Below are positions 9,678-43,676 of a DNA stretch of 64,000 nt, piece by piece. The notes below the pieces were generated by a model. It was not told the origin of the DNA. It was given only the letters and a program-made list of their open reading frames with translations, and made no database searches. Position numbers and translations under genes: made by a program. Each line of letters begins with the position of its first letter. Position 1 is the first letter of the stretch. This DNA comes from Clostridiales bacterium (lineage in GTDB: Bacteria > Bacillota > Clostridia > Christensenellales > UBA1242): the NCBI GenBank assembly GCA_015069395.1, contig SVIR01000005.1:4788-68787 (forward strand), written 5' to 3'.

Positions 9678-9691
9678 ACTTAAATAAAAAA

Positions 9692-12145: not shown

Positions 12146-13111
12146 TTAAACAGCATACAAAAGCATAAATATCAAAACTGTCAAACTTACAATAGTTGTT
12201 ACAACCACATAACTTGCAACAATTTTGTTTTCGTGTACTCCTTTTTGCTCAAAATGGTGATGTAGTGGAGCCATAAGAAAGACTCTCTTTTTTGTTTTTT
12301 TAAAATATACCACCTGAATGATATCAGACACAGCAGATAGGACAAACATAATTCCCATAATTGGCAAAAGAAGTTCTAGTCCACTCAAAACAGCAACCCC
12401 TCCTATAAAGCCTCCTAATGCTAACGATCCGGTATCCCCCATAAAGATTTTTGCAGGATAAGAATTAAGAACCAAAAATCCTAAAATTCCACCACAAAGG
12501 CCAAAACATAACATTGCCAAATTGTTTAATTCTGTAGATCCCAACAACGCTAAGATAATTCCAAAAATCAATATATAAACAAGCGACACTCCTCCAGCCA
12601 ACCCATCAAGGCCGTCTGTCAAATTTACACTGTTTGTGGTTGCCACCAACACTAAAACTGTCAAAGGTATCACCCAAAAGGATATATCAATTTTAAAAGA
12701 GAAAAAAGAAAGGGTTGTCCTGCCCGTTAAATATAAATAAACTCCGACTATAAGAGATATGCCTACTTGTCCTATCATTTTTTGATAGGCCCTAAGCCCA
12801 AGATTGTGATGATATCTTACTTTTATAAAATCGTCTAAAAACCCAAGCAACGCATAAGCAATAGTCACTGCTAAACAAAACCAAGCCAAAAAAGAATCTT
12901 CGGCAAACAAAAAACAACTTGCAAACAAAAGAGTCAAGACAAAGACAATTCCTCCCATGGTGGGGGTTCCTTGTTTTGCCGAATGCTTGTCCACATAATG
13001 CAATATAGTTTGTGATGCTTTGAGTTTTTTGCAAAACCAAAGCACCACAGGGGCTACAAGAAGAGAAAATAGCAAACAAAACAGCCCACAAATCAAAAAT
13101 TTAATTGTCAT
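12146..13111 (-). CDS. mraY: phospho-N-acetylmuramoyl-pentapeptide transferase
   Basis: Polytopic. Motifs GTPTMGG, NLTDGLDGLA, MGDTGSLALGG and APLHHHFE. I prefer the ATG at 13111 (MTIKF...), which forms an ATGA overlap with the murE stop. The track start at 13153 would overlap murE by 46 nt. Confidence 0.9.
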   Translation of the reverse strand: MTIKFLICGLFCLLFSLLVAPVVLWFCKKLKASQTILHYVDKHSAKQGTPTMGGIVFVLTLLFASCFLFAEDSFLAWFCLAVTIAYALLGFLDDFIKVRYHHNLGLRAYQKMIGQVGISLIVGVYLYLTGRTTLSFFSFKIDISFWVIPLTVLVLVATTNSVNLTDGLDGLAGGVSLVYILIFGIILALLGSTELNNLAMLCFGLCGGILGFLVLNSYPAKIFMGDTGSLALGGFIGGVAVLSGLELLLPIMGIMFVLSAVSDIIQVVYFKKTKKRVFLMAPLHHHFEQKGVHENKIVASYVVVTTIVSLTVLIFMLLYAV

Positions 13112-14571: not shown

Positions 14572-14658
14572 AACCCCTCCTTATTTTTCATTGTAATACC
14601 TCTTTTCAAAAATGTTCTAGCAAAGTCAAAATAAGTGAATTTTTGACATTATTTTCAA

Positions 14659-15747
14659 CTACTTTTTTATCGTCTTAACAGATGCAAAAACTTGAATTGC
14701 TTCACTATCAAAACTTTTTATTAAATGAGACTCCTTTTCATAATTGATTTTTGATTGTTCTATCAAACAGTTGAGCAAGTCTTTAAAGTTTGTATCCTTA
14801 AACAAATAAAAAGCGAGCGACCCCGGGATTGTATTAATTTCGTTTGCATAAAGCACTGAATTTTTCTCGTCATACAAAAAGTCTACTCTTACAACACCTT
14901 GACAATCAAAAAGTTGATAAATCTTTTGCGTAATGGCTTTTATCTTTGCGGCCAACTCTTGTTCTGCTTCTTTTGTTTTGTTGTTTTTGCTTAGATATTT
15001 ATCTTCAAACGTATAAATTTCTTCTTTGTTTTCAACTTCACATACCGACGACAAAAACATTTTTCCTTTATATTCAAAGCAAGCACAATTAAACTCTTTT
15101 AGATTTTCAACCAACTTTTCAACTAAAATTTTATTGTCAAACTCAAACGCTAAAGCAACGGCTGTTTTAAACTCTTCTTTGTTATGACAAACAGAAATGC
15201 CTATGCTGCTCCCCAAATTGCAAGGCTTTACAATTACAGGAAACTCCAATGTAGACTTTATCGAATCTTTTGGTCTTAAAATAAAACAATCTGGTGTATT
15301 TATTCCATTTGCTTTGAATATGTCTTTCATAAAACTTTTATCCATACATAAAGCACTGGATGTGGTCAAAGAGCTAGTTTGAGGCACATAACAACACTTC
15401 AAATATCCTTGAACTGCTCCATCTTCTCCTAAATTTCCGTGACAACAATTTAAAACAGAATCAATTTTCTTTAAAGGTATAAATTTTTTATTTTTTTTAA
15501 CAAACAGAGTACTTTCTCCAACAACAAAAGAAACTCTTTTTTTCTTTTTTGCAAATTTGTGAAAATCTGCATAAATTTTTAAGTCTAGCAAATTTTCTGC
15601 AGTCCACCACTTTCCTGTTTTGTCTATATAAACAAAAACCGAGTCAAATTTATTGCTTAAATTGTTGGCAGCCTGCACCCCTGTAATTACTGAAATATCA
15701 CTTTCGACAGACATTCCTCCAAACAAAACCAAAACCGTTTCTCTCAT
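14659..15747 (-). CDS. ddl: D-alanine--D-alanine ligase
   Basis: LFGGMSVESDISVITG N-terminus with an ATP-grasp C-terminus (VRVDFLYD, ANEINTIPG). I prefer the start at 15747, preceded by AAGGAGAG. Confidence 0.88.
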   Translation of the reverse strand: MRETVLVLFGGMSVESDISVITGVQAANNLSNKFDSVFVYIDKTGKWWTAENLLDLKIYADFHKFAKKKKRVSFVVGESTLFVKKNKKFIPLKKIDSVLNCCHGNLGEDGAVQGYLKCCYVPQTSSLTTSSALCMDKSFMKDIFKANGINTPDCFILRPKDSIKSTLEFPVIVKPCNLGSSIGISVCHNKEEFKTAVALAFEFDNKILVEKLVENLKEFNCACFEYKGKMFLSSVCEVENKEEIYTFEDKYLSKNNKTKEAEQELAAKIKAITQKIYQLFDCQGVVRVDFLYDEKNSVLYANEINTIPGSLAFYLFKDTNFKDLLNCLIEQSKINYEKESHLIKSFDSEAIQVFASVKTIKK

Positions 15748-15798
15748 AAGGCTCTCCTTTATTGTTTTTGTATGTGTATATACATACATTTGACAAAA

Positions 15799-17202
15799 TT
15801 ATCGGTAATTATCCGGCAAATCATTCTCAAACAAAACCACATCCCCCGCCTTCACCACTTTTTTCAAAATTTCCTTTTGTTCTTGTCGAGTGTTTGCGAA
15901 ATATATTTCTCTTCCAAACTCTTTTGCCCCTTCAAAAAGAGCTTCTTTATTTGTTTTATTCATAATCACAAAAATATCTGCGTATTCAAAAATCTTTTTT
16001 CCTATTTTTAAATTTGTTTCATATTGCTCTTTGCCAAGTTCGACTACCCCAGGAGAAACAACTATCTTTCTACCCTCAAAACCTTTCAAAACTTCCAAGG
16101 CTTGACAAAAACCATCGAAGTTGCTGTTGTAAGAGTCGTCAATAACAGTTGCAACATCACTTTTGATAATCTCAAGACGGTGCGCAACTTGTTGGACATT
16201 TTTTATCCCCCTCAAAATATTGTAAACGTTTTCCCCTAGCAAATATGCCATTGTTGATGCTACAACTATATTGTCAATATTTGCTTGCCCCAAAAGTTTT
16301 GTCTTGCAATGAAAAACCTTTTTATCCAACACCATATCAAATTCAGAACCTTCTGAATTTGTTGTTATATTTTTTGCATAAGCAAAACTTCCATTATCAC
16401 AAACCAAAAACTTTTTTCGTTCAAACCTTTCAAAAAGACTTTTAGTAGATTTGTTTGTTCCATTAAAAACTACAAACTGTTTGGCACTTTCACACAATTC
16501 AAATTTTGTAGATTCTATATTTTCAATTGTTCCAAAGGTCTCTAAATGACATTTTCCTATCGGAGTTATTATTCCAAAATCAACCCCAACAAAATCAGCC
16601 AAAAATTTTATATCCCCTTTATGCCTTGCCCCCAACTCTACGACAAAAATATCGTCCGTTTCTTTCAAGTTTTCTAAAATCGTTTTGCAGACTCCCATTG
16701 GAGTATTAAAACTTTTTGGAGTTGCACAAACATCAAACTCTTCGCTTAAAATTTGATATAAAATATTTTTGGTAGTAGTCTTTCCAAAACTGCCCGTAAT
16801 GGCAATCTTTTTGCACTTCATTTTTGCAAGTTTATTTTTGGCTTTTTTTATAAATTGTTTTTTTATAAATTCTTCAAAAGGCATAGCAATTAAAAACGAC
16901 AATACTATTTCAATAGGTCTGATAAAAATAAATATAACAACAATTAAAATAACAAAAGCATTGTTTAAAGAGTAAAAAATCAAAAAAAACAACCAAAAAT
17001 TAAGAAAAAAATCAAGAAATATCAATCTTTTTATTCTTTTTGTATAATTCAGCCTGTTTTTATCGAAAGACACAAACTGAAATTTTACTATTTTTTTTAT
17101 ATAATTTTTTAGTTTGTATCCTTCAAGTTGAAAAGATTTTAAGAAAAATAATCCTACAACGCTTGAGACAAACGTCAACAAAAAACTATAAAGTGCATAC
17201 AT
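15799..17202 (-). CDS. murF: UDP-MurNAc-tripeptide--D-Ala-D-Ala ligase with an atypical N-terminal membrane domain
   Basis: ITGSFGKTTTKN P-loop, IDDSYNSN, VSPGVVELGKE. The first ~130 aa are three or more hydrophobic helices (LYSFLLTFVSSVVGLFFL, FLNFWLFFLIFYSL, VILIVVIFIFI). I prefer the ATG at 17202 (GGAG upstream); the track start is 17217. Confidence 0.8.
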   Translation of the reverse strand: MYALYSFLLTFVSSVVGLFFLKSFQLEGYKLKNYIKKIVKFQFVSFDKNRLNYTKRIKRLIFLDFFLNFWLFFLIFYSLNNAFVILIVVIFIFIRPIEIVLSFLIAMPFEEFIKKQFIKKAKNKLAKMKCKKIAITGSFGKTTTKNILYQILSEEFDVCATPKSFNTPMGVCKTILENLKETDDIFVVELGARHKGDIKFLADFVGVDFGIITPIGKCHLETFGTIENIESTKFELCESAKQFVVFNGTNKSTKSLFERFERKKFLVCDNGSFAYAKNITTNSEGSEFDMVLDKKVFHCKTKLLGQANIDNIVVASTMAYLLGENVYNILRGIKNVQQVAHRLEIIKSDVATVIDDSYNSNFDGFCQALEVLKGFEGRKIVVSPGVVELGKEQYETNLKIGKKIFEYADIFVIMNKTNKEALFEGAKEFGREIYFANTRQEQKEILKKVVKAGDVVLFENDLPDNYR

Positions 17203-17926
17203 AATTTTCTCCGACATTTAAAAATTTTTCCAAGAGCATAACAAACTCAAACTTTCTGTCCAAGAAGCAAAAGTGTCCGGCATCTTTCAATATGACCAAC
17301 TCTGAATTTTTAATTTTTCTATGCAATTTTCTAGCCATATAAAGAGGAGTGTCCACATCTTTTTCTCCAAAGACAATTAGAGTTTTTGCTTTCACAAAAG
17401 GCAGAAATTCGTCTAAATGTGTATTGACTATGCTTATAAAAACCTTCTTCATTTGAGGACTCAAATTTTTATAATCAGAACTGCCATAATTTGAAATATC
17501 TTTTCCAAGTTTTCTTTTCACTTTGTAATCAAAAACCTTCCAACGATACTTTATTCCTCTCTTGGGTTTTAATCCTGCACTATCAATAAGCATAAGTCTA
17601 TCAACCAACTCTTTTTGGAATACGGAGATAATTATTCCAACTCTTCCACCAAAAGAATGCCCTATCAAATTTATTTTTTTTAATTTCAGGTGTTGACATA
17701 GAGATATGACCATATTTGCATATGTAAAAATTGACCACCCTTCAACCTCTCCACTCTGCCCAAACGGAGGAAAATCTATAAACAAACAACTGTCGAGCAA
17801 AACCTCGTTGCAAAAGAGCAAGCTGTTGTGATCGTTTGCCCAACCATGTAAAAATACATTTACAACGGAACTTTCTTTATCGAAAAATTTATAAAAGATT
17901 TCACAATCCCTATATCTATATTTCAT
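17186..17926 (-). CDS. alpha/beta-fold hydrolase
   Basis: 246 aa. HGWANDH near the N-terminus, nucleophile elbow GHSFGG, C-terminal DAGHF. Confidence 0.7.
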   Translation of the reverse strand: MKYRYRDCEIFYKFFDKESSVVNVFLHGWANDHNSLLFCNEVLLDSCLFIDFPPFGQSGEVEGWSIFTYANMVISLCQHLKLKKINLIGHSFGGRVGIIISVFQKELVDRLMLIDSAGLKPKRGIKYRWKVFDYKVKRKLGKDISNYGSSDYKNLSPQMKKVFISIVNTHLDEFLPFVKAKTLIVFGEKDVDTPLYMARKLHRKIKNSELVILKDAGHFCFLDRKFEFVMLLEKFLNVGENYVCTL

Positions 17927-17935
17927 AAAATCATT

Positions 17936-19219
17936 TTATGAAATAAAATTGTTTTTGTGCAAAATCTCTGGCAGATCGCCAGCCCCGACCACAAGCAAAA
18001 CATTTCCTTTCTTTTTAAAACCTTTAAAGAAGTAAGCTAAATCGTCAAAATTTTCGAAATATTTTGCATTTTTGTTGTATTGTTTCACTAAATCGCACAA
18101 AGCCTCTGCAGACACTCCTTGTTCTTCTTTCTCTCTCGCCGAAAAAGTTTTATAGAAAAGTGGAACTTTACAATCTTTAAAAATCTCTATAAATTCTGCG
18201 AGTAACAATTTTGTTCGTGAATATGTATGAGGTTGAAACAACACAATCACATTTTTGCCAATATAAATTTTCTTTGCTGTTTCAACAGCCTTTCTGATTT
18301 CTGTTGGGTGATGCGCATAATCACATACAACAGCATCAAAAAATTTAGATTCCTTTTTTTGAAAACGTTTTTCGACCCCTCTATATTTTTCAAGCCCAGT
18401 TTTGATATCCCTTTCGCTTACTCCCAATTTTTTACAAGCCTGATAAGCATAAATACAATTTTCAATATTTACTTCCTCACATAGATGCAAGCTTAAATCA
18501 AAGACTTTTCGCTTCTTTTCAAACAATGAAAATTCCAAACCTCCGTTAGCTTTATGCTTGATATTCTTTGCTTCTAATTGCCCATAACTATCAATCACGA
18601 TTTTTGACTGTTTTTTAAATCTTTCAAATGACTTCAATTCATTTTCAAAAGTTCTGAAATAATCTAAATGTTCTTTCTCTATATTTGTAACAATTGAAAT
18701 GTAAGGGGCTAAATACAAAAAGTTGTCACAATATTCACAAGCCTCTGTTACAAAATATTTTTTGCCTCCTAAACAAAAGTTTTTTCCATCTTCTATTCTA
18801 AACCCACCCAAATGCAAACTTGGATTAAGCCCCGCAACTTTCAAGATCTCAAAAATCATTGCTGTAACAGTTGTCTTTCCATGTGCCCCAGCCACAGCAA
18901 TAACTTTCTCATAATCTCTTGAAATCTCTCCCAACAACTTTCCTCGACAGATCATTATCTTGTTTTGTTTTTTTGCCAGTTTAAAAATTGGGTTGTCGTC
19001 TTTAATCGCAGAGGAATAAACAATTAAATCTGCATCTTTTACAGCATCTTCGTTTTGCTCAAAATCTACCTTTATACCTGCCTCTTCCAATTGAGATGTC
19101 GCTTTACTCTTGCGCTCGTCATAACCAGAAACAATCTCACCTTTTTCTTTCAAAAACATAGCCAGGGCAGACATAGAAATTCCACCTATTCCCAACATAT
19201 AATAGTTCATATTCATAAA
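17936..19219 (-). CDS. murC: UDP-N-acetylmuramate--L-alanine ligase
   Basis: MLGIGGISMSALA N-terminal motif; VAGAHGKTTVTAM P-loop. The start is ambiguous (TTG 19231, ATG 19219/19213) and there is no clear SD. Confidence 0.88.
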   Translation of the reverse strand, partial: FMNMNYYMLGIGGISMSALAMFLKEKGEIVSGYDERKSKATSQLEEAGIKVDFEQNEDAVKDADLIVYSSAIKDDNPIFKLAKKQNKIMICRGKLLGEISRDYEKVIAVAGAHGKTTVTAMIFEILKVAGLNPSLHLGGFRIEDGKNFCLGGKKYFVTEACEYCDNFLYLAPYISIVTNIEKEHLDYFRTFENELKSFERFKKQSKIVIDSYGQLEAKNIKHKANGGLEFSLFEKKRKVFDLSLHLCEEVNIENCIYAYQACKKLGVSERDIKTGLEKYRGVEKRFQKKESKFFDAVVCDYAHHPTEIRKAVETAKKIYIGKNVIVLFQPHTYSRTKLLLAEFIEIFKDCKVPLFYKTFSAREKEEQGVSAEALCDLVKQYNKNAKYFENFDDLAYFFKGFKKKGNVLLVVGAGDLPEILHKNNFIS

Positions 19220-32763: not shown

Positions 32764-32838
32764 GGTCCTATGGTCAAGCGGTTAAGACGCCGCCCTCTCA
32801 CGGCGGAATCAGGGGTTCGATTCCCCTTAGGACTACCA
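32764..32838 (+). tRNA. tRNA-Glu (anticodon CUC), CCA encoded
   Basis: Hand-folded. Acceptor GGTCCTA/TAGGACT (G1-U72). D arm GTCAAGCGGTTAAGAC. Anticodon stem CCGCC/GGCGG with loop CTCTCAC. T arm AGGGG TTCGATT CCCCT. Close to Bacillus tRNA-Glu as I recall it. Confidence 0.9.
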
Positions 32839-32860
32839 ATAGAGACATTGTCGAACCCAT
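32825..32860. repeat. direct repeat DR1 left copy (last 14 nt of tRNA-Glu + 22 nt downstream)
   Basis: ccttaggactaccaatagagacattgtcgaacccat; 34/36 identical to 42859..42894. Confidence 0.9.
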
Positions 32861-32893
32861 ATAAAATGGGGCGGATAATGTCTTTTTCTTTAT
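32853..32893. repeat. direct repeat DR2 left copy
   Basis: gaacccatataaaatggggcggataatgtctttttctttat. It matches 41263..41303 at 32/41 positions ungapped, including the exact 18-mer gataatgtctttttcttt. Confidence 0.65.
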
Positions 32894-33075
32894 CTCAAAC
32901 AATTTTGCGAATAGATTTAAAAGATTTTTGATGCGGTTCAAAAGAACTGCTTTTTTTACACATTTAATTTGATGCACTTAATGCAAGGAGGAATGTTTAT
33001 TGAGAATAAAACTATTTTACTTTCTTTATTATTAATTTTGTCATGCTCTGATTAAATTCTAAACCAATTTTACAA

Positions 33076-33118
33076 ACAAAAAAGTACAAATTCTAAAGAT
33101 AAATTTGTACTTTTTATT
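33076..33118. terminator. strong bidirectional terminator downstream of the giant gene
   Basis: Perfect 12-bp stem aaagtacaaatt(33081-33092)/aatttgtacttt(33102-33113) with flanking A/T runs. Confidence 0.8.
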
Positions 33119-33189
33119 TTTGACGAAACCAGGTTGAAATTTACGAATTTGTTTAGCATTTCAAACTTAATTCGAAACTTTTGAATTTA

Positions 33190-36100
33190 TTAAACGTTTT
33201 TAGTCCATTGATAGCTTGTGTAAGTTGACCTAAAGTAAATTGCAACTGTTGATGAATTGTTTAAATCCCCATCATCAAAATAAGCTTCACCTGATGAATT
33301 AGCTAACTTCCAATTCTTATTAGATACAGAAACAGTTTTTAAATCCTCACATAAAGCAAACGCATATGCTCCAATAAACTCAACACTAAGTTTAATTGAA
33401 ACGTTGGCTAGATTTCTGCAGTTATAAAATGCTTTTTCGCCAATATTTAGAAGGTTTGATGGCAAAGAAATATCGGTTAATCCATAGCATTCATAAAACG
33501 CACCTTCGTCAATATTTGTCAATGATTTATTAAAAATTAAATCGGTTATTTTAGCACCTTTAAATGCATAGTCTGAAATGGTTTGAACTTCTTCTAACAG
33601 AACAAACATCTCTGCTTCTTTTCCGCATGCATATTGAATCAACTCAGTTAAATCAGCTGAGTATAAGTTTCCATCAACTGAGGCATATTTTGTATTGCCT
33701 TCTGCAACAACGATACTATTTAATTTTTTACAATCTTCAAAAACCACCTGTCCAAATTCAACCAAACTCTTTGGCAGAGTTATTTCGGTAATATTAATAT
33801 ATTTAAAAGCACTATCACCAATAGATAGCAAACCATCATTTAGAGTAACTCTGTTTAACCCATAGCAATTTTCAAATGCGTTGCTATTAATATACTTTAA
33901 ACTATCTGATGCATTAAAACTTGTTATGGTTGTTATTCCAGCGAATGCTGAACTCGCAACTCCGAGAGTGCCGGCTTTTAAGTTGACTTCCGTTGTCTCT
34001 TCCACAGCCCCAATTGCCCAATTGCCAGCATAATAAACCCCGTTCTCAATAGTAACACAAGGCGCTGTTAAATTGAATGCATTTGAATTAACATAAGTTA
34101 CGCCACTTCCTAAAGTTATACTTTCAAACCAATCACACCCTTGGAATGCACCATAAACTATTGCCCCACTTTCAACATGAATATTTTTCAAGGATGAAGG
34201 AATATAATACACTCTACTTTGTCCTTCCGATATGTTTTGAGTTATGGCATTAAAACCAGTATAGTAAGTATTACCAAAAACTTCTCCAAAAACACCTGCT
34301 GGATTAACAGCTTCTAAAGATAGAGACGAAATGCTTAATGTTTCTAGCTTTGTGCAACCACCTAGTGCATCACTTCCAATCGTTTTAACCGTACTTGGAA
34401 TGGCCATACTTTTTATGCTAATGCATTTTTCAAACGCACTTGCTCCAATAGTTTCAACAACTGAATTAAACTCAATATTACTTAAAGATGAGCACCCAGC
34501 AAACATTCTGCTTCCTATATTCTTTAGTGTTGATGGCATAGTAAACTTCGTTAAAGCCACGCAATTTTCAAACACGCTTTCCCCAACCGTTTTAACTTTA
34601 GAGCTCTCAAAACTCACATCAGTTAAACTAGAGCAATTTTGAAATGCACCATTTTGTATGGAAACCACATTTTTTCCCATTGTAACTGTCTGCAAATTCT
34701 TGAAATTATAAAAGGCATTTGCACCAATTTGAGTAACTGAATCTGGTACAACTAAAGAAGTTAATTTATCTCCATTAAGCCAAAACTCGTCTGCACAATG
34801 CATTGGATTGCAATCAACATCGCTAAAATTATAACTTAACCAATCTTCCAAAGAGCCAACAAAGTTAAACACATCAACATTACTATAATTCGCAAAGTTT
34901 GCTTCAAAAGAAATTGCATTCGTTGCCGATAAATACTCCAACTTTGAGCATAAATAAATAGCATTCGTTTCAACCTTAACAACGCATTCTGGCAGAGTTA
35001 AATGAGTTAAAGTATTGTTATACGCAAAGGCATACTTTCTAATCGCGTAGTTTCCTATGTCAGTTGGCAAGATTGGGTTTGCATCTGTTCCTTCATAAGC
35101 AAGAAGATATTTCTTTTCGTTAAGCGTAACGAATAAGAAATCTTTATTCGACGAATCAATTATTGATGCCTCGGAAGAACTTGAATGAATAACTTTTGGG
35201 TTTGCATTACCAAGCACGCTATCAATATCAATTTTGAATGTGTTGGTACTATTATAAATTTCAATCAACTTTGAGCAATTATCGAAAACTCTCTGACCCG
35301 CGTTTAAAATATTGTTGTGAAGTTTAATTGAATATATGCTTAAACAACCAGCAAAAGCATAATCACCTAGCGTTTCCAGCGATGCTGGCAAATCGAAAAT
35401 CCTTAATCTAAAGCAATTACTAAATGCATAACTAGCGATCTCAGTTAAATTAAACATGCTCACGGTTTTTAAATTTGAACAACCTGCAAAAGCATAATCG
35501 CCAATAGTTTTAGTCAAACCATTTTCATCACCAATGCAAACCGAAACTAACTTTGTACAATCACGAAAAGCATTGGCTCCAATATTTTCAACACTATTTG
35601 GAATAACAACATTTTGCAAGTTAGAACAACCGCTAAAAGTTCTTTCATAAATCGCTGACATATCTGGAATGTTTATTTCTGATAAGCTAGAGCAGTTATA
35701 AAACGCATAACTGTCAAAAGATTTAACATTATTGTCAATGACTATGCTGTTTATTGTTGAAATATTAGCAAATGCACCACAACCTATTGAACCACCAAGA
35801 ATTGTAACCTTTGTTAAATTTTTTGGAATATAATACGTGATTGATGTGCCTGATGGGTAACTAGTTTTTTGAGAAAGTGAAATGGAATTATCATACGCAT
35901 AACTTCCAAATAACGCACCAAACAATGCATTTTCGCCAGTTGAACCTAGACTTGCAAGAGTTAACTCCTCTAAAGCAGACAAGCCTGCAAGTGAACCAGT
36001 GGACAAAGCATTTGCTCCAGATGGAATATGCAGTTCTTTTAAGCTTGAGCATTTTGCAAACGCCCTACTTCCAACGCTAGTCACTCCATCATGAAGAGTA

Positions 36101-39100
36101 ACCGTTTGAAGATTTGGTAAATTATAGAACAAAAACGCGTTAATTGCAGTGACAGATTCTGGAACGACAAGTTGGCTTAAACTCTCACCATTAATGGTTA
36201 GTGTTGCACCTACACTCATTGGGCAAGCATATAAGCTTTTATATTCAACTCCAAAATATTCATCCAAACTTCCAAGATAATTAAACTCGGAAATATTGGA
36301 ATTCATAAACGCACTGCTTTCAATAGATTTGACGCAAGTTGACAAATCAATTGTTTCTATATTTGATGCGTTAGCAAAAGCATATTTTCCAATTGCTTCG
36401 CACTTTGCAGTATCTGCAAAACTTATGGCAGAAATGTTTGCTCCAGAACTAGACGGGTTAAATAAATAATCTGGCACTCGCTCAACATTTACTCCAATAA
36501 CTACTTCAAAAGCTTCCATTCCATCAAATATATGGTTATCAGAATTTTGGTTAGCAATCAAATTTGAGTTTAAAATTATTTTTTTAAGATTGCTTGTGCC
36601 ATAGAACGCATATGCATTAATGACAGAAATGTTTGACGTTACTTCATAAACCTCGTTTGAACTTCCGCAAGCATATTGAATCAATTGAGTTTTATCTTTA
36701 TTAAACAAACTTCCATTCGCCGAAGCGAAAGTTTCATTTAATTCATCAACTGATATGCTTTGTAAATTGGTACAATTATAAAAAGCATTTTCTCCAATAG
36801 TTGTTACGCCTGCTGGAAGAGCAATTGAACTCAATGTTGAATTTGCAAATGCGTTTTCTCCGATTGACGCACAAACACTACCCTCTTCAAAAACAATTCT
36901 GGCAAACTTGCCTCTTCTTGAATTATAACTCTCACCACCATGATTTAAAAAATTCACAGGGACTTTGGTTACGTTTTTACCAAATGTTATTACTATTCCA
37001 CTTGAGTCAACTCCTGCATTATTAAATAAATAAGTATAATCTGTTAAATCGTTAACATCAGAATTAATAATCAAACTCTCAAGATTTGAACAACCATTAA
37101 ACACACCATCGCCTAATTCAGTAACATTTTCCAAAACGATATGAGTTAAACACGACCAACCACTCAATGCATCATCATATAGCGCGCCTTTTTTAATGGT
37201 TAGACTTTTCAAATTAGAAGCTCCACTAAAATAATAGTTTAAAAGTTTTTCTTCATTTGAGCTATCATTACTACCAAGTTGGTCAAAAGTTAAACTACTA
37301 AGATTCGTGCAACCATATAAAACTCCTTTACCAATAATTTGCATCGTTGATTTAAACTCAAACTCGGTGATGCTAGTGCAATTTTTAAAGGCATAAGTTT
37401 TAATAGATGAAATATTTTCATGAATGTTTATATTTTTTAAAGCATAACAATTTTCAAATGCATACTCAGGAATTGTTGTTAAACCAGTTGGAAGAGTAAC
37501 GTTTTCCAAAGATTCGCACCCACTAAATACTCTATTCCCAATGGTTGAAATCGTTTCTGGGAGTTCAACATTTTTTAATGCACTCGCTCCCATAAATGCA
37601 AAATTCTCTAAAGATTCAACTCCACTTGCTATATTAACATCAACTAAAGCTTCGCAATTCCTAAAGGCAGATTTTGCAACAGTTTTAACACTTGAAGGAA
37701 TGTTAACTGCTTTTAAACTCAAGCAATTATAAAATGCTCCTTCTCCTATGCTCTCAATAGTAGCTGGGATACTCACTTCTTCGAGCCCAGTAAAATTATA
37801 TAATGAATATGAATTTATTGCTGTCAAATTCTCAATATCAATTGATTTTATTTCTTTTACACTTACGTTATTAATATACAAGTTATTGGCAATATGTGTT
37901 GGGTTGCAACCCATTCTCGCCATAGAAATACTTAACCAATCATTGATTGTTCCATTAAAATAAACATCATTAATGCTAGCATTTTGGAAGGCAGTTGCTA
38001 TGTCATCGCCATTAATATGTCGCAAAGTATTTGGCAAGGTTAATTTGGTGATGCTTGACTTTAAGAATGCATTCTTTTCAATTGAATCGACATTATTTAA
38101 AGTTACTTCAACATCGACAAGGTTACACAATCCACCATAATTAACATTTCCACCATTAATAGTTATTTGTTTTAAACCGGCTGGAATATAGTATGTTGCA
38201 CTTGATGAATAAGATTGTCCATTTGGAATATAGTATTGAGTAGTTTTGATTGAATTTGTGTAACTAATTTCTCCAAAAATTTCTCCAAACGGATATTTGG
38301 TTGAAGATTCACTTGCTGAAGTACCAACAAATGGCAAGACTACACTTGTTAATTTTCTACACCTTGCAAACGCACTTGAACCAATATAAGTAACTGAATT
38401 TGGAATATTAATTTGGGTAAACCCACAATTATAAAACGCATTTGAATTAATTTTTTCAGCACCATTAAAACTAAAAGTTTCTAATTTAGTGCAACCACTA
38501 AATGCATAATTCCCAATTTGTTTTACACATGAAAACTGACAAGACACTAGTTTTGAGCACCCGCTAAATGCGTAGTTTCCAATTTCTAAAGACGAGTTTC
38601 CTCCAGTAATTTGAGTTATTCCACTGCATCCATTGAACGCATCGGCACCGATCACTTTAACACCATTTCCAATATTTAGTGAAGTTATTAAAGATTTACC
38701 ATAGAACGCATCACTTTCAATAGATGTTATTGAATTTGGAATAACGATATCTCCAGCAAGTTTATTTGGAATATGCAGAAATTGGTTTTGAGCTCTGTTA
38801 TATAAAACCCCTGATTGAGAAGAGTAATAATTATTTCCACTCTCAACATCAATGTGTCCTAATGATGACAACTTATTTAGAACACTGCCTAATGAAAAAC
38901 ACTCATCTGGAATTACAACCTGTGTTAAAGATGTAGATGCTTCTTCAATTGCAACCATATATGGCTCATCAAGAGTTCCTAAGTATTTTATGCCACTAAA
39001 CTCGTTATATTGAAGTTTTGAACAGTTTGAAATGGTTGATTTTGTGAAGGTGTCACGATTTGAAATAGATTCATTCGCATAATTATATATTAAAATTCGC

Positions 39101-40935
39101 TCTAAATTTTCGCAATTGCTAATGCTTGCATTTTCATAACTAAAGAATCCTAAAAGCACCAATGCCTTAATGTTTGAAGCACTAATACAATTCGCTTTTA
39201 ATGCAGTGATACTTTTGCCACCAATTCTTTGAGGAATAACAAGTACGTCATTATCATATGAATCGCTAATTCCTTCTAAGTTATAAACATATGACGAATA
39301 TAAAATGTCCGCATTTTCTTCGCTTAATACTTCAACATTTTTAGCATAAATAGCAGAATCGCTTTCAAACTTTTCATTGCCGTTTAAATAAACTGAATAA
39401 TCTTCATCTCCAAACCAACCATAGAAATAATTCGTTAAAGATGAATTAGTTGTTATATCCTCAGTTTTTTCTGGCAATTCAATCAAATAGTCTTGCGACT
39501 TGCATGTTTGCAAGGTTTCAGTTAAATCCCCATCAACATATACCTGAACGTTAATCATAAGTTCAGTTACTTCGATATTTACTTCAGCAGGCAAACCATT
39601 TGAAGTTGTTGCTGTTATTTTAGTCTTTCCAATTGACACTCCCTTAACAACACCATTCTCAACCGTTGCAATGCTCTCATCTAAACTTGCCCACGCAACC
39701 GTTTTGTTGGTTGCGTTAGTTGGAAAAATAGTTGGAACAAGGTTAAAGGTTTTTGTTTCTTGAATGGAAATTGAATTCTCATTTAAAGTGATACTTGTTG
39801 GCTCAATAACGGGATCAACACGAACTGAGCATCGCGCACTTATTCCGTTTTTGGTTGTTGCAATTATTGTTGCGTTTCCTACACCAACCGGCGTTACATT
39901 TCCATTTTCATCAACAGTTGCAACGCTAGAGTTTGATGATCGCCAGGTAACTTCTTTATAAGTAACATTGCTAGGATTCCAGCTAACACTAAGTTTTTCA
40001 CTGTCATAGCCTTTAATTAATGTCAGTTGCGTTTTATTTAATGAAATACTATTTGCCAAAACTTCCCTAACTGCGGTTATGGTTAAAGATGCAGTTTTAT
40101 GTTCACTACCATACACATAAATAGTCGCATTCCCCGCCGCAAGAATCTCAACCAAACCATCCTCATCAACTACTGCAACGCTTGTGTTTGAACTACTCCA
40201 AGTAACGTCTTTTATTGACGCATTTACCGGATAAATATATTCTTCCAACTGCAAAGCGGTTGAGCTTTCACCATATGGAATAACAACATTTTTAGAAGAT
40301 GTTTGCACCCCATCAACCAAAATATTAATACTCTGAACAAACACATACTCGTCAACCTTAACCTCAACGCTTGCAGTTAAGCCATTAACAGTTGTTGCGG
40401 TTAACGTTGCTATTCCAGTGCTATCAAAACCAGCATAAATTGTTGTTCCGCTGGCACTTGCAACTCTTGGATTAGATGAAGTCCATTGAATAAAAGTTTC
40501 AGTGCAATTAAATGGTTCTAGAATAATATCAATCTCGCAACTTCTTGAAGTAAACAACTGAACACTTTCCACACCTAAACTAATAGAAGTTGGCATAATA
40601 ACAACATCAATATAGCAATAGGCTGTGTGTCCAGAAGATGAGGTCGCAGTTATTTGAACTCCGCCAAGAGCATGCGCAGTAACTAACCCATTTGTATCAA
40701 CGCTTACAACACTCTCATCATTAGAACTCCAAGTTATGGCTCGGTTTTTAACATTATTATTTCTAAATTTGACTTCTAACTGATATGTCGAGTTTAATTC
40801 CACATCATAGCTATAATCGTAAAAATAAATTTCAACCACTTCAGGCTGAGGTTCTTCCTTTTTCCCAAAGCAACCTGAAACTAACGGACAAATAATTATT
40901 GCCAAAAACACTAATAACCAAACCTTTCTTTTCAT
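33190..40935 (-). CDS. giant cell-surface lipoprotein: about 5 Big_2 Ig-like domains followed by BspA-type leucine-rich repeat arrays
   Basis: ATG at 40935 follows AAAGAGG (the track TTG 40941 is too close to it). Lipobox LVSGC. Big_2 signatures ITWSSNDESVVSVDTNGLVTA, VTWSSSNTSVAVVDEDGLV, VTWRSSNSSVATVDENGNV. Dozens of LRR_5-like units (IP.SVT.IG..AF..C..L). Confidence 0.85.
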   Translation of the reverse strand: MKRKVWLLVFLAIIICPLVSGCFGKKEEPQPEVVEIYFYDYSYDVELNSTYQLEVKFRNNNVKNRAITWSSNDESVVSVDTNGLVTAHALGGVQITATSSSGHTAYCYIDVVIMPTSISLGVESVQLFTSRSCEIDIILEPFNCTETFIQWTSSNPRVASASGTTIYAGFDSTGIATLTATTVNGLTASVEVKVDEYVFVQSINILVDGVQTSSKNVVIPYGESSTALQLEEYIYPVNASIKDVTWSSSNTSVAVVDEDGLVEILAAGNATIYVYGSEHKTASLTITAVREVLANSISLNKTQLTLIKGYDSEKLSVSWNPSNVTYKEVTWRSSNSSVATVDENGNVTPVGVGNATIIATTKNGISARCSVRVDPVIEPTSITLNENSISIQETKTFNLVPTIFPTNATNKTVAWASLDESIATVENGVVKGVSIGKTKITATTSNGLPAEVNIEVTELMINVQVYVDGDLTETLQTCKSQDYLIELPEKTEDITTNSSLTNYFYGWFGDEDYSVYLNGNEKFESDSAIYAKNVEVLSEENADILYSSYVYNLEGISDSYDNDVLVIPQRIGGKSITALKANCISASNIKALVLLGFFSYENASISNCENLERILIYNYANESISNRDTFTKSTISNCSKLQYNEFSGIKYLGTLDEPYMVAIEEASTSLTQVVIPDECFSLGSVLNKLSSLGHIDVESGNNYYSSQSGVLYNRAQNQFLHIPNKLAGDIVIPNSITSIESDAFYGKSLITSLNIGNGVKVIGADAFNGCSGITQITGGNSSLEIGNYAFSGCSKLVSCQFSCVKQIGNYAFSGCTKLETFSFNGAEKINSNAFYNCGFTQINIPNSVTYIGSSAFARCRKLTSVVLPFVGTSASESSTKYPFGEIFGEISYTNSIKTTQYYIPNGQSYSSSATYYIPAGLKQITINGGNVNYGGLCNLVDVEVTLNNVDSIEKNAFLKSSITKLTLPNTLRHINGDDIATAFQNASINDVYFNGTINDWLSISMARMGCNPTHIANNLYINNVSVKEIKSIDIENLTAINSYSLYNFTGLEEVSIPATIESIGEGAFYNCLSLKAVNIPSSVKTVAKSAFRNCEALVDVNIASGVESLENFAFMGASALKNVELPETISTIGNRVFSGCESLENVTLPTGLTTIPEYAFENCYALKNINIHENISSIKTYAFKNCTSITEFEFKSTMQIIGKGVLYGCTNLSSLTFDQLGSNDSSNEEKLLNYYFSGASNLKSLTIKKGALYDDALSGWSCLTHIVLENVTELGDGVFNGCSNLESLIINSDVNDLTDYTYLFNNAGVDSSGIVITFGKNVTKVPVNFLNHGGESYNSRRGKFARIVFEEGSVCASIGENAFANSTLSSIALPAGVTTIGENAFYNCTNLQSISVDELNETFASANGSLFNKDKTQLIQYACGSSNEVYEVTSNISVINAYAFYGTSNLKKIILNSNLIANQNSDNHIFDGMEAFEVVIGVNVERVPDYLFNPSSSGANISAISFADTAKCEAIGKYAFANASNIETIDLSTCVKSIESSAFMNSNISEFNYLGSLDEYFGVEYKSLYACPMSVGATLTINGESLSQLVVPESVTAINAFLFYNLPNLQTVTLHDGVTSVGSRAFAKCSSLKELHIPSGANALSTGSLAGLSALEELTLASLGSTGENALFGALFGSYAYDNSISLSQKTSYPSGTSITYYIPKNLTKVTILGGSIGCGAFANISTINSIVIDNNVKSFDSYAFYNCSSLSEINIPDMSAIYERTFSGCSNLQNVVIPNSVENIGANAFRDCTKLVSVCIGDENGLTKTIGDYAFAGCSNLKTVSMFNLTEIASYAFSNCFRLRIFDLPASLETLGDYAFAGCLSIYSIKLHNNILNAGQRVFDNCSKLIEIYNSTNTFKIDIDSVLGNANPKVIHSSSSEASIIDSSNKDFLFVTLNEKKYLLAYEGTDANPILPTDIGNYAIRKYAFAYNNTLTHLTLPECVVKVETNAIYLCSKLEYLSATNAISFEANFANYSNVDVFNFVGSLEDWLSYNFSDVDCNPMHCADEFWLNGDKLTSLVVPDSVTQIGANAFYNFKNLQTVTMGKNVVSIQNGAFQNCSSLTDVSFESSKVKTVGESVFENCVALTKFTMPSTLKNIGSRMFAGCSSLSNIEFNSVVETIGASAFEKCISIKSMAIPSTVKTIGSDALGGCTKLETLSISSLSLEAVNPAGVFGEVFGNTYYTGFNAITQNISEGQSRVYYIPSSLKNIHVESGAIVYGAFQGCDWFESITLGSGVTYVNSNAFNLTAPCVTIENGVYYAGNWAIGAVEETTEVNLKAGTLGVASSAFAGITTITSFNASDSLKYINSNAFENCYGLNRVTLNDGLLSIGDSAFKYINITEITLPKSLVEFGQVVFEDCKKLNSIVVAEGNTKYASVDGNLYSADLTELIQYACGKEAEMFVLLEEVQTISDYAFKGAKITDLIFNKSLTNIDEGAFYECYGLTDISLPSNLLNIGEKAFYNCRNLANVSIKLSVEFIGAYAFALCEDLKTVSVSNKNWKLANSSGEAYFDDGDLNNSSTVAIYFRSTYTSYQWTKNV

Positions 40936-41262
40936 GATCAAACCTCTTTATGAACGATTTAGCGCGTATTATTATATGTATACTCATTTAAATTTTAACA
41001 CAAAGACATGATTTTAGCAAACAATATAAAATGTTTTCAAATTATTAAAAATCAATTCTTTATATATTGGATGTATTTAAAAATTTTATACTCAAACCAA
41101 ATAATGCTTTAAGTTTAAACAATAATCAAAAATTAAACCACCCAAATTTGATGATGCCTGTTGTATAATAAAATTCATCTATATGCACGGCGCACTAAAC
41201 AAATTCTAACAATTCCATTTTTATTCTCCAAATGAACAATTGTTAGATGCAAAACAGTAAAC

Positions 41263-41303
41263 AACCCATCAAATAATGGACAGATAATGTCTTTTTCTTT
41301 GTA
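41263..41303. repeat. direct repeat DR2 right copy
   Basis: caacccatcaaataatggacagataatgtctttttctttgt; see 32853..32893. Confidence 0.65.
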
Positions 41304-41310
41304 TTAAGTT

Positions 41311-41338
41311 TTGCTTTTGGACTTTTGTGTGATATAAT
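41311..41338 (+). promoter_or_regulatory. candidate promoter (extended -10) upstream of the 41435 ORF
   Basis: TTGCTT(41311-41316), 16-nt spacer, TGaTATAAT (-10 at 41333-41338). Confidence 0.45.
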
Positions 41339-41434
41339 CTTTTTGAAAAAAATTATGAGCTATCTTACAGAAATTTCAACGGCATAACAAGCAAGTTTGG
41401 TGCACATTTTATCTTAAAAATAGACAAAATCTTA

Positions 41435-41803
41435 ATGAAAGAAAAATATCACAAATCAATAGTAAATGGTGTAAAATCAAACAATTTCCCAAGAGTGCCT
41501 GTTGATTATGGTTATAGAGACAGTACAAATTTTTGGTATACAAAATTTTCTAAGCCAATTTCAGAAAAAATTCCCGCAAAAGATGGCGACGTGAAATCTG
41601 TAATGTATGCTGCAGATAGAATCGATCCTGAAATAAAATTTACAGAAGGAGCTTGCGCAAAACTCGTAAAAATCCTAAGAGTATTTCTCAAAATGGCACT
41701 TACCCAAATGGTCAACATTGCCAGAGAAGAAAACATCACTTTAATTGACGAAGCCGCACTTGACATCATAAACGATAAACGAAGGAAAGAAAAAAAGAAA
41801 TAA
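41435..41803 (+). CDS. hypothetical protein; C-terminal half weakly PCP-reductase-domain-like
   Basis: 122 aa. FTEGACAKLVKILRVFLKMALTQMVNIAREENITLIDEAAL resembles the small PCP_red fold pattern as I recall it. No SD precedes the ATG. Confidence 0.4.
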   Translation: MKEKYHKSIVNGVKSNNFPRVPVDYGYRDSTNFWYTKFSKPISEKIPAKDGDVKSVMYAADRIDPEIKFTEGACAKLVKILRVFLKMALTQMVNIAREENITLIDEAALDIINDKRRKEKKK

Positions 41804-41848
41804 CAATTTAAGTGTTCGACAGAGGTTCAAAACTGGCTACCAATTTTA

Positions 41849-41876
41849 ATCTCTATCTTTTGATAGAGATTTTTTC
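41849..41876 (+). terminator. rho-independent terminator
   Basis: Stem atctctatc(41849-41857)/gatagagat(41862-41870) followed by TTTTT. Confidence 0.75.
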
Positions 41877-41960
41877 ATTTTGTGAAAAATTGATAAATTG
41901 GTAAATTTTTAATACAAAATTATAAGTTGTGTGATATAATTTCATTATAGGAGAAATATT

Positions 41961-42695
41961 ATGAAAAATAAAGTTGTAATAATAACAGGTGGAAGCAGAG
42001 GTATTGGTAGAGCAACTGCAATAGAGTTTGGAAAACTTGGTGCAAAAGTTGTTATAGTTTATAATTCTAATGACAAGAAAGCAAAAGAAGTTGTTGAGGA
42101 AATTAAAAAAGTTGGCGGAAATGCAACTTGTTTTAAAGCAGATGTTTCAAAAGAAGAAAATTTGAAGCCTATCGTAGATTTTGCAATCAAAACTTATGGC
42201 AAGATTGATGTATTGGTTAATAATGCAGGTATTGTATTTGATAGAGAGTTTGAAAATATAAAATATGACGAAAGTTTGCAAATATTAAAAACCAATATGC
42301 TTGCACCATTGTTTTTAAGTAAACTTGTTGCACAAATAATGGTAAAAAATGGATATGGTAAAATTATCAATGTCAGTTCAACTTCTGGTATGTATGATTT
42401 TAATCCTGGAACCGCAGATTATGCTATGAGTAAAATTGCATTACAATCTTTGACAAAAGATTTGTCTATGAAATATGCTCCAATAATAAATGTTAATGCT
42501 GTTGCTCCTGGTTGGGTAAACACCGACATGAATGCAGATTTGCCAAAAGATTTTGTAGAAAGCGAAACTGCAAAATATCATATGGGTAGATGGGCAGAAC
42601 CAAAGGAAATTGCGGATGTAATAGTTTACTTGGCAAGCGATAAGGCAACTTATATTACGGGACAAATAATTGTGCTTGATGGTGGGCATTGTTAA
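41961..42695 (+). CDS. short-chain dehydrogenase/reductase (FabG-like)
   Basis: TGGSRGIGRATA, NNAG and YAMSK (YxxxK). AGGAGAAATATT before the ATG. Confidence 0.85.
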   Translation: MKNKVVIITGGSRGIGRATAIEFGKLGAKVVIVYNSNDKKAKEVVEEIKKVGGNATCFKADVSKEENLKPIVDFAIKTYGKIDVLVNNAGIVFDREFENIKYDESLQILKTNMLAPLFLSKLVAQIMVKNGYGKIINVSSTSGMYDFNPGTADYAMSKIALQSLTKDLSMKYAPIINVNAVAPGWVNTDMNADLPKDFVESETAKYHMGRWAEPKEIADVIVYLASDKATYITGQIIVLDGGHC

Positions 42696-42858
42696 AAAAT
42701 GTTGAAACTATAAACTTTCAATCTTTGTATCCACAAAATTTTTAAAAATTTAAAAACTTACAAATTATAAACCTTTACACTTTGCAAGTGCAAAATTTAC
42801 ACAAAATTTCAAACTTTGATAATTTTTTATCAAAGCGTAGTTGATAAACAACAGAACA

Positions 42859-42894
42859 CCTTAGGACTACCAATAGAGACCTTGTCGAACACAT
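42859..42894. repeat. direct repeat DR1 right copy (orphan tRNA-Glu 3' end + terminator hairpin)
   Basis: ccttaggactaccaatagagaccttgtcgaacacat, followed by tgctgttcgacttttt, which completes the hairpin gtcgaac/gttcgac. Confidence 0.9.
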
Positions 42895-43043
42895 TGCTGT
42901 TCGACTTTTTCTTTTAAATTTTCTGGTATAAAAACTTGAAAACAACAAAATCTCCTTGATTTAAAAACAAAAGGAGAAATGATATATATGATATTTACAA
43001 TAAAGGAGCGAACTAGAAAAGAAAACAGCAAAAAAAACAACAC

Positions 43044-43676
43044 TTATGGTGCTGTTTTAAATTCTTCACAATTTAAAATTTCTTTCTCTGTAAAGTAATC
43101 ATAAATTTGATTGTGATCGCCCTTAAAATGTATTACATTTATTCCAAGTTCAATAGCTGGTACAATATCGTGTTTGTAGTTGTCTCCCACCACCAAAACT
43201 TCTTCAGCACAAACGTTTTCTTTTTTCATAATATCTATGTAATTTACAGATTTGCTCTTCACTTCTCCTAAAAAGTTCAACGATTGCAACTCTTTAAAAT
43301 ATTTTCTATTAACCTTATACTTCTTTGTGTAATATTTTAAATATCTTTGTGGTGACATTGAAACTATATACAAAGGATGCTTCTCGCTCAACTTCTTAAA
43401 AAATTCGTCTGGAAGAACTTTTACATTTGGTGAGTGTTTGCAAAGCATCGTTTGATATAATCTGTTGAATTTTTTAACATCATATCCTTCTTTATCAAGC
43501 CACAAAACAACATCTCTGGTATTAACGTCTTTTTTTATTTCATATTTTTTGCAAAAGCTTTCAAAATCTTTTTTTAACACTTTTCTTAAATATTTAAACA
43601 AATAGTCTGGCCAATTGTCCCAAGTTTTGCCGGTATAAATAGTATCGTCAAAATCAAATATAACAACTTTTATCAT
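43044..43676 (-). CDS. HAD-superfamily hydrolase
   Basis: Motif I FDFDDTIY; motif IV VVGDNYKHD. Confidence 0.7.
   Translation of the reverse strand: MIKVVIFDFDDTIYTGKTWDNWPDYLFKYLRKVLKKDFESFCKKYEIKKDVNTRDVVLWLDKEGYDVKKFNRLYQTMLCKHSPNVKVLPDEFFKKLSEKHPLYIVSMSPQRYLKYYTKKYKVNRKYFKELQSLNFLGEVKSKSVNYIDIMKKENVCAEEVLVVGDNYKHDIVPAIELGINVIHFKGDHNQIYDYFTEKEILNCEEFKTAP

Follow-up and report, generated by a model that had tools for sequence, protein, structure and literature searches.

A probable tandem of two horizontally acquired, recombinase-less modules at the 3' end of a tRNA-Glu(CTC) gene in uncultured gut Clostridia

How does a block of some 10 kb come to lie between two copies of the end of a tRNA gene when no gene within it looks like a recombinase? 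The question is raised by a 64-kb stretch of DNA from a Clostridiales bacterium (contig SVIR01000005.1), which we call the window, or W; L-numbers denote the loci and contigs compared with it. ARAGORN finds a single tRNA in the window, and Rfam concurs (RF00005, 65.9 bits): an intact tRNA-Glu(CTC) on the forward strand at 32764-32838, its CCA encoded in the DNA, which serves as the integration target in what follows. An earlier note, made from the letters of this DNA alone, had observed that the 3' end of this gene recurs downstream and had proposed that the interval between the two copies, 32839-42858, arrived by integration. We find that this interval is probably a tandem array of two horizontally acquired modules without a recombinase, of the type described as cis-mobilizable elements (CIMEs), set at the 3' end of tRNA-Glu(CTC).

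The two copies of the tRNA end are repeat A, an attL-type junction (32825-32860, forward strand) made of the last 14 nt of the tRNA and the first 22 nt of the DNA that follows it, and repeat C, an attR-type junction (42859-42894, forward strand), in which a 14-nt copy of the tRNA-Glu 3' end is followed by ATAGAGACCTTGTCGAACACAT. They agree at 34 of 36 positions (repeat family D9), just as the note had counted, and a 32-nt repeat pattern searched with up to 3 mismatches matches at A and C only and not once in 100 shuffles. ARAGORN and Rfam also confirm what the first 14 nt are: positions 32825-32838 comprise the 3' acceptor strand, discriminator base and CCA of tRNA-Glu(CTC), a gene that is identical across species at 73 of its 75 positions. 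Nothing tRNA-like turns up in 40900-43100 even at E ≤ 10, in keeping with the note's claim that the 3' end was duplicated and the tRNA body was not. Between the repeats lie, from the left, 351 nt of non-coding DNA, an open reading frame (ORF) of 2583 aa encoding a predicted lipoprotein with LRR stretches, 494 nt of non-coding DNA, an ORF of 122 aa, and a short-chain dehydrogenase (SDR) gene.

Where did this DNA come from? The answer is found in other genomes that carry it. In contig L094 (Logan SRR28204460), positions 1-8367 are 98.9% identical to W 32798-41163 and positions 8359-8707 are 97.7% identical to W 41496-41844; even the non-coding left end (32839-33189) is 96.3% identical. Core DNA of L094 agrees with that of W at only 71.4% from rpe to def and 75.2% in the priA region; L094 belongs to another species. 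The same disparity is seen in proteins, with 98.5% amino acid identity for the LRR lipoprotein and 38-78% for six core proteins (38% for the HAD protein, 66-78% for the others). The near-identity ends at ...AAAGCTGACTATCAATCGAGACATTATCGAACAC... and a terminator, beyond which the genomes diverge. Because the L094 island differs from that of W at 88 positions, it is a separate copy and not a mis-joined piece of W's genome. A third species, L027, is a metagenome-assembled genome (MAG) from water-deer rectum whose GlmM and MarR are 62% and 70% identical to those of W in amino acids. It has its own tRNA-Glu, with a compensated C6:G67 pair, and the 232 nt after this tRNA are 94.4% identical to W 32839-33070, where the contig ends; its DNA is 65% identical to W in the GlmM region and 77% in the MarR region, and upstream of the tRNA only ~56 adjacent nt align. 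The sequence of repeat A follows tRNA-Glu in L027 and L094 alike, and the left boundary of the shared DNA is the CCA end in W, L094 and L027.

Since the island is 98-99% identical where the core flanks are 71-75% identical, these alignments show that the interval is foreign DNA, gained by horizontal transfer at the end of tRNA-Glu. The proposal of arrival by integration is upheld in this respect, and refined from one block to two modules, 32839-41844 and 41845-42858. Composition, a second indicator that the note had named, says little: GC is 0.328 in the interval and 0.341 in the flanks, which is uninformative, and the high tetranucleotide distance of the interval (0.289, where other 10-kb windows give 0.112 +/- 0.022) is confounded by repetition within the LRR gene and was left unused.

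The division into two modules becomes apparent when the SDR gene is followed through the related contigs. L008 (Logan SRR28204437) belongs to the same species as W, with a right flank 99.2% identical over 9 kb, and is without W 41845-42864; its junction reads ...GTGTTCGACAGAAACACAAAGCTGACTACCAAT|AGAGACATTATCGAACAC... L094 has the same SDR-less junction, D-left and C-right parts sharing CTACCAAT. The site called D here (41812-41844, forward strand; GTGTTCGAC...GGCTACCAAT, in full GTGTTCGACAGAGGTTCAAAACTGGCTACCAAT) serves module 1 as its distal att-like site and module 2 as its left junction. It ends in the shared core CTACCAAT (41837-41844), the same sequence that follows GGA in the tRNA end, and it splits the interval in two, a feature that the earlier note overlooked. 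Both L008 and L094 pass directly from site D into the sequence 3' of repeat C, and in both the right boundary of module 1 reads ...GCTGACTA(C/T)CAAT(A/C)GAGACATTATCGAAC.

Contig L120 (Logan SRR17418337) presents the converse arrangement. It starts CCCTTGGGACTACCAAT|TTTAATCTCTATC... (TTTAATC...), that is, with the tRNA-Glu 3' end joined directly to the left end of the SDR segment, the sequence downstream of site D. Its positions 10-1046 are 92.4% identical to W 41837-42873, and the far end reads ...GATAAATAACAGAAC|CCCTTGGGACTACCAA|ATTAAAACACACC..., beyond which both the terminator and the genes are unrelated. Here CCCTTGGGACTACCAA is a 16-nt repeat of the tRNA end on the far side of the SDR segment, and the similarity between the W and L120 copies stops exactly after GGACTACCAA. 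As the SDR segment is missing from L008 and L094 and stands alone on the tRNA in L120, the interval consists of two tandem modules: module 1 (32839-41844, ~9.0 kb), with a left-end terminator, the LRR lipoprotein gene, the 122-aa gene and site D, and module 2 (41845-42858, ~1.0 kb), with its own left-end terminator, the SDR gene and a 163-nt right arm. Judged from these junctions, module 2 is a separate 1-kb unit that sits on the tRNA in L120 and in the distal att-like site of module 1 in W. The SDR-less strains carry AAAGCTGACTACCAAT at the position of repeat C, which is the pre-insertion site; the tRNA-like 14 nt of repeat C (CCTTAGGA) therefore most likely entered with module 2 and are probably not the host's displaced tRNA end, and the exchange would lie in CTACCAAT.

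Two of these sites have a symmetry of their own. 8-nt inverted repeats frame the att-like site at W 32813-32857 (GGGTTCGA...TCGAACCC), the left arm being the tRNA T-arm, and likewise the distal site of L008 (reverse complement, ~1202-1252; GTGTTCGA...TCGAACAC); the repeats stand 30-35 nt apart at both sites and are centred on ACTACC. We also observe that contig L004 begins at 42861 and L120 at the tRNA-end repeat, both exact repeat boundaries, as would be expected from the assembly graph if alternative junctions co-occur in the sample.

A further regularity is that in each module the shared core (G)ACTACCAAT is directly followed by a terminator hairpin belonging to that module, which would end transcription of tRNA-Glu, and that each module closes with a mimic of the tRNA 3' end. 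At the left end of module 1, a terminator hairpin with U-tract occupies 32841-32890 on the forward strand (hairpin 32841-32885, -22.1 kcal/mol, z = -6.6); that of module 2 lies at 41848-41871 (-12.3 kcal/mol, z = -5.95). Both are strong and functional-looking. The first had escaped the earlier note, and it is stronger than the one at the right copy. It is retained in three copies (W, L094 and L027) despite base changes in stem and loop, which argues that in an inserted module it serves to terminate the tRNA transcript. The clean hairpin and T-tract that the note saw at the right copy are real (42884-42915, forward strand; hairpin 42884-42905, -13.4 kcal/mol, z = -5.1). The note's identification of this structure as the original tRNA terminator, displaced by the insertion, has evidence on both sides. 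In its favour, the hairpin is similar to the terminator native to tRNA-Glu in L022, an unoccupied relative (CGAACCAATATGGTTCGATTTTTTTCTTTAA); against it, W and L008 differ at 12 of 58 nt in this stretch, in strains otherwise 99.2% identical. Displacement of the right-hand terminator from the host tRNA is plausible. A degenerate copy of the module 1 left-end terminator region, repeat B, is found at 41263-41307 (forward strand; 78% identical to 32854-32898, family D16), with no stable hairpin left (z = 0.0). It falls within a 332-nt stretch (41164-41495) that is deleted in L094 between 9-nt repeats TGCCTGTTG, and going by its sequence it may mark where a module once ended at an earlier time.

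Is this tRNA end a preferred place for such DNA? We scanned species-representative genomes with an alignment of GlmM, which returned 79 loci; a search of metagenome and genome contigs with the HAD protein found no relatives, HAD being too divergent, and GlmM was used instead. The nearest loci come from uncultured Clostridia MAGs labelled Candidatus Caccovivens or uncultured Christensenella/Catabacter, with GlmM at most 67% identical, so that W is without a close reference genome, and the host is a member of the uncultured low-GC gut Clostridia related to Candidatus Caccovivens. About 25 of the 79 share the frame acyltransferase - GlmM - MarR - tRNA-Glu(CTC) - [variable] - (HAD) - rpe - rsgA - rlmN - fmt. 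In W the HAD hydrolase (43044-43676, reverse strand, by Pfam) is the first host-backbone gene of the right flank, which runs HAD-rpe-rsgA-rlmN-fmt-def-priA; among the relatives rpe-rsgA-rlmN-fmt is conserved and HAD is present in some only. The LRR, 122-aa and SDR genes stand at the tRNA-Glu position in none of the 79 reference loci. The comparison with empty sites, which the note had proposed, is accordingly answered in part: none of these loci holds the island and L022 is unoccupied, its tRNA being separated from rpe by 75 nt that hold a terminator only; no empty site was seen in the same species. The closest relatives are among the loci with the tRNA orientation of W; in those other than L022, rpe or HAD lies 1.4, 2.4, 2.7, 3.0, 5.1, 5.8, 7.2 and 7.8 kb beyond the tRNA 3' end, and the contents of the gap are unrelated, among them a Y-family polymerase cassette, ATPases and, in L015, a large serine recombinase. 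From gaps that vary so much and hold such unrelated contents it follows that the tRNA-Glu 3' flank is a hot spot for variable DNA across the whole family.

Several of these loci deserve a closer description. The slot between tRNA-Glu and rpe in L015 holds, at 15934-17975, the large serine recombinase (Resolvase, Recombinase and Zn_ribbon_recom domains) and an HTH gene; a 10-nt copy of the tRNA end (GGACTACCAA) at 17899, inside the 3' end of the recombinase gene, is at about chance level, and comparison with L019 and others gives outer limits only for the element, 12504-18889. Within the relatives' variable regions we find no tRNA-end repeats above chance except in L019, L040, L044 and L046. 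The last three have tRNA-Glu 3'-end duplications 175-370 nt downstream (L040 4143-4392, L044 14759-15032, L046 11398-11782), and L019 has GACTACCAA and a terminator 193 nt downstream of the tRNA (12397-12672). These short duplications may be scars of integration or excision, or tiny inserts. In L027 the HAD gene lies directly upstream of GlmM (9156-12383), and so the block GlmM-MarR-tRNA-Glu-island is inverted relative to the rpe cluster when compared with W. L028, L031, L033, L035 and L044 carry the tRNA on the opposite strand, adjoining rpe or HAD, and the variable DNA is again 3' of the tRNA. In L009, a more distant relative, a 376-aa collagen-like protein with G-x-T repeats (12693-13823) adjoins tRNA-Glu within the variable interval.

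If integration brought the modules in, which enzyme did it? The note's statement that no recombinase ORF lies inside was corroborated. Among the three ORFs of the island Pfam recognises LRR_5, Big_2 and SDR domains only, and a phmmer search of all window ORFs of at least 50 aa with the tyrosine integrase of L097 and the large serine recombinase of L015 gave nothing convincing, its best hit being MarR at E = 0.04. The interval has only about 1.2 kb of non-coding DNA in total, too little to accommodate a decayed integrase gene, and no trace of an integrase pseudogene. Looking outside the window, a megablast of the whole interval against plasmids and phages (50,697 phage records) returned no match, and neither did the island-specific att sequence against IMG/VR viral contigs. 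The tRNA-Glu 3' end matched viral contigs 13 times, mostly at tRNA-Glu(TTC) in phage tRNA-gene clusters; three of the matches (L098, L106 and L110) fall in a tRNA-Glu(CTC) locus that is unrelated, and two of the three are fragments of the tRNA. Neither these viral scans nor the plasmid and phage searches yielded a related element with an integrase. A metagenome scan with a 59-mer from the island's left end gave 0 matches, in a collection that seems to be without this lineage. The direct repeats that the note had put forward as possible arm-type sites (42708-42727 and 42766-42784) are weak: they are 66% identical over 38 nt, a third copy at 45907 is at chance level (family D10), and they are partly conserved in the module 2 copy of L120.

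With these observations we can sketch how the array might have been built. A recombinase encoded elsewhere would recombine a copy of the tRNA end carried by the element (attP) with the tRNA end itself, the candidate by precedent being a tRNA-Glu-specific tyrosine integrase of a helper integrative and conjugative element (ICE), integrative and mobilizable element (IME) or prophage. Module 1 would insert at the tRNA, and module 2 would then enter the distal att site of module 1, by accretion, with the crossover predicted to fall within CTACCAAT. The comparisons themselves show the foreign origin of the DNA, its exact boundaries, the occurrence of each module independently of the other and the lack of a recombinase; the class of the recombinase, the order of the two events and any current mobility are what we infer here. 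If excision is site-specific, the empty-site junction is expected to read GGTTCGATTCCCCTTAGGACTACCAATAGAGAC[A/C]TT[G/A]TCGAACAC...TGTTCGA, the circle junction of module 1 AAGTGTTCGACAGAAACACAAAGCTGACTACCAATAGAGACATT[G/A]TCGAACCCATATAAAATGGGG, and that of module 2 GTAGTTGATAAACAACAGAACACCTTAGGACTACCAATTTTAATCTCTATCTTTTGATAGAG.

A number of points weigh against this account. Within the 64-kb window we find no integrase, excisionase or relaxase, and neither an empty site in the same species nor a circular junction was found, both metagenome scans being empty. L094 starts inside the tRNA and L027 ends 231 nt into the island, so that no second genome displays both junctions on one contig. The module 1 repeat reaches 17-18 nt past the tRNA (ATAGAGACATTATCGAAC); because unoccupied relatives do not have this sequence behind their tRNA, the repeat is more than a copy of the host's target site. 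The surroundings of the core are mosaic as well: the 56 nt to its right are identical at 52 positions in L008 and L094, which are different species, and the conspecifics W and L008 have 12 mismatches in 42881-42938 and 6 in 41824-41836. This patchwork suggests that recombination was perhaps not limited to a single crossover point; end points may vary, or gene conversion may act at these sites. Finally, a single-gene unit of 1 kb is smaller than typical described CIMEs.

These same observations can be turned into a rival account. In it, DNA uptake or conjugation is followed by homologous, or homology-facilitated illegitimate, recombination, with tRNA-Glu and microhomology as the anchors and no site-specific recombinase at all. 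The near-invariant tRNA is a ready anchor between species, the mosaic edges of the core (mismatch clusters 41824-41836 and 42881-42938) look like variable end points, no recombinase was found, and deletion between short repeats does occur here, as the 9-nt TGCCTGTTG in L094 attests. Yet both modules, unrelated as they are and spread over at least four host backgrounds, terminate in the tRNA 3' end repeated in direct orientation (26 nt for module 1, 16-17 nt for module 2), which one-sided homology doesn't predict. Module 2 has moreover entered two targets, the tRNA and the distal site of module 1, at the same core of 8-10 nt each time, and right flanks that are ~71-75% identical or unalignable make a poor substrate. 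We consider this explanation unlikely.

A second rival keeps the site and changes the enzyme. The tRNA-Glu end would be a platform for the capture of cassettes, at which a non-classical recombinase, whether a large serine recombinase or a host enzyme, stacks units of promoter, gene and terminator in an integron-like manner. What speaks for it is the make-up of module 2, a single gene with ~120 nt upstream and ~165 nt downstream, together with the core surroundings (mraZ/rsmH ... clpXP) in which its nearest non-mobile relatives (87% amino acid identity) are placed. Repeat B is a hint of one more boundary, the third and of greater age, the dyad-symmetric sites (A and the L008 distal site) fit the att geometry of serine integrases better than tyrosine cores in our own reading, a large serine recombinase occupies the same slot in L015, and L040, L044, L046 and L019 have their tiny tRNA-end duplications. 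But only two or three units are seen, most relatives' variable regions are without internal tRNA-end repeats, and the 10-nt match in the L015 recombinase gene is no better than chance. Repeats 16-36 nt long are what tyrosine-integrase tDNA islands typically have, unlike the 2-nt crossover of serine recombinases. The 2014 Islander survey, too, knows tyrosine recombinases alone as enzymes that target tDNAs (PMC4383910). On balance the platform is improbable, and we would give no better chances to its fuller form, in which the tRNA-Glu(CTC) 3' end is a dock for terminator-promoter-gene units that carry a tRNA-end mimic, were captured from chromosomal genes, are exchanged between species and are stacked by an unlinked recombinase, possibly an L015-like serine enzyme; if it were true, the locus would be a tRNA-anchored analogue of integron cassette arrays.

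The weakest rival, that the interval is ancestral, the relatives having lost it and the right repeat being chance or the tail of a decayed tandem tRNA, can draw on a GC content like that of the flanks and on rearrangement of the MarR-to-rpe region in many relatives, and it is next to untenable against an island ~99% identical between flanks of ~71-75%, the lack of any tRNA-like remnant around a repeat that shuffling never reproduces, the single tRNA reported by ARAGORN, and the occurrence of module 2 as an insertion/deletion difference between strains 99.2% identical.

Returning to the two-module array, we now consider what it carries. The main cargo of module 1 is the 2583-aa predicted lipoprotein (33190-40941, reverse strand), in which Pfam finds Big_2 domains (E = 1.7e-54) and 18 BspA-type LRR_5 stretches (E = 4.6e-262); its N-terminus is MIMKRKVWLLVFLAIIICPLVSGC, with a lipobox-like VSGC as read by eye. 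At 32993-33055 on the forward strand a strong ribosome-binding site (AAGGAGG) precedes a 20-codon ORF, MFIENKTILLSLLLILSCSD*, with a lipobox-like ILSC, which is kept in the island left ends of L027 and L094; a micro-ORF and a truncated lipoprotein signal are both conceivable. Outside the array, W 1-6440 encodes two very large predicted lipoproteins or surface proteins, one of at least 968 aa that runs off the window start and one of 1146 aa, with similar N-termini (MKKYLIAILMILLGLGCT... and MKRYLVAIFMILFGLGCT...).

The second gene of module 1 encodes the 122-aa protein (41435-41803, forward strand), which has no Pfam match. We find 287 homologues at 57-100% identity; elsewhere they stand in unrelated, non-island contexts, and a role as mobility factor was for this reason set aside and the protein treated as cargo. 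Many of the homologues are annotated as 150-210 aa long, and the ~80 nt 5' of the ORF start (W 41354-41434) are 77-86% identical upstream of homologues in L097 and L111-L116, which together suggests a conserved leader or a different true start. In L097 (491-2557) a homologue 73% identical adjoins a tRNA-Ser(CGA) on its 5' side, and the 3' side of the tRNA is occupied by a tyrosine integrase of 433 aa. L097 would seem to hold a tDNA island of its own, separate from that of W, and we read the proximity of the integrase and the 122-aa homologue as coincidental.

Module 2 carries the SDR gene (41961-42695), so named for its Pfam SDR domains; no database record was found with the exact sequence of this protein. 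Its distant homologues, at 87% amino acid identity, occupy a core position with the mraZ/rsmH cluster on one side and clpXP on the other, and their loci align with W over the ORF and ~60 nt upstream only. Such alignments suggest that the cargo gene probably derived from an ordinary chromosomal gene.

What does this mean for the biology of these organisms? BspA-type surface proteins are usually linked to adhesion and host interaction, and here a surface lipoprotein of this kind, 2583 aa long, moves nearly unchanged between gut Clostridia species whose core genes differ by ~25-30% at the DNA level. Its carrier encodes no recombinase, and standard island finders for which an integrase gene is obligatory would overlook these modules. 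Their exact att-like junctions are now defined; they can be searched in reads for excision and used to find the helper recombinase. The tRNA-Glu(CTC) 3' flank is marked as a hot spot of gene exchange in a poorly known uncultured lineage.

It remains to place the array among known systems. Prophages and phage satellites are recognised by structural, replication and packaging genes, and the modules have none. Integrative mobile elements exploiting Xer (IMEXs) do without a recombinase and use the host's XerCD at dif. The modules of W resemble them as integrated DNA without its own recombinase and in the stacking of arrays, and differ in the target, which is a tRNA 3' end and not dif; we saw no dif-like site, and no search for one was made. 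With IMEs and mobilizable genomic islands they share small size, location at tRNA-gene 3' ends, frequent tandem arrangement and, presumably, helper-dependent transfer. IMEs, however, bring an integrase of their own and in most cases a relaxase or oriT (PMC5704250); the modules of W encode none of these. The tDNA islands catalogued by Islander have ends marked by a regenerated tDNA and a displaced fragment (PMC4383910). W matches them in its intact target tRNA at one end, a displaced-looking tDNA fragment in direct orientation at the other, an island between that restores the tRNA end, and tandem arrays. It departs from them on two counts: Islander demands an integrase gene per island, of the tyrosine family, and W has none, and the distal repeat of module 1 shares 8-9 nt with the tRNA and a further 17-18 nt of post-tRNA sequence.

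CIMEs come closest. They have lost integration and transfer genes and kept attL and attR, and tandems arise by accretion when a newcomer integrates in the attR site (PMC5704250); the type case is that of ICESt1/ICESt3 and CIME19258/CIME302 in Streptococcus thermophilus (Pavlovic 2004 and Bellanger 2011, as cited in PMC5704250). The modules of W, likewise, are bounded by attL/attR-type direct repeats that take in the target gene's 3' end (repeats A, D and C, with the same junctions in L094, L008, L027 and L120), contain no integration, conjugation or mobilisation genes, stand in tandem with the second unit in the att site of the first, and are shared between genomes. Differences are found in the target, a tRNA-Glu(CTC) of an uncultured Clostridia lineage with no cognate ICE or IME known, in the size of module 2, at ~1 kb and a single gene, and in that no excision or mobilisation was seen and no pseudogene traces point to descent from a decayed ICE or IME. 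The sharing of the modules across species at 92-99% identity is the one indirect sign that they may be excised and transferred through the integrase of a helper. By this analogy the mechanism is best regarded as an instance of the described CIME-type accretion and not as a new principle, and the main interest of the locus lies in the adhesin-like giant lipoprotein that it carries, the unusually small second module and the precision of the junctions.

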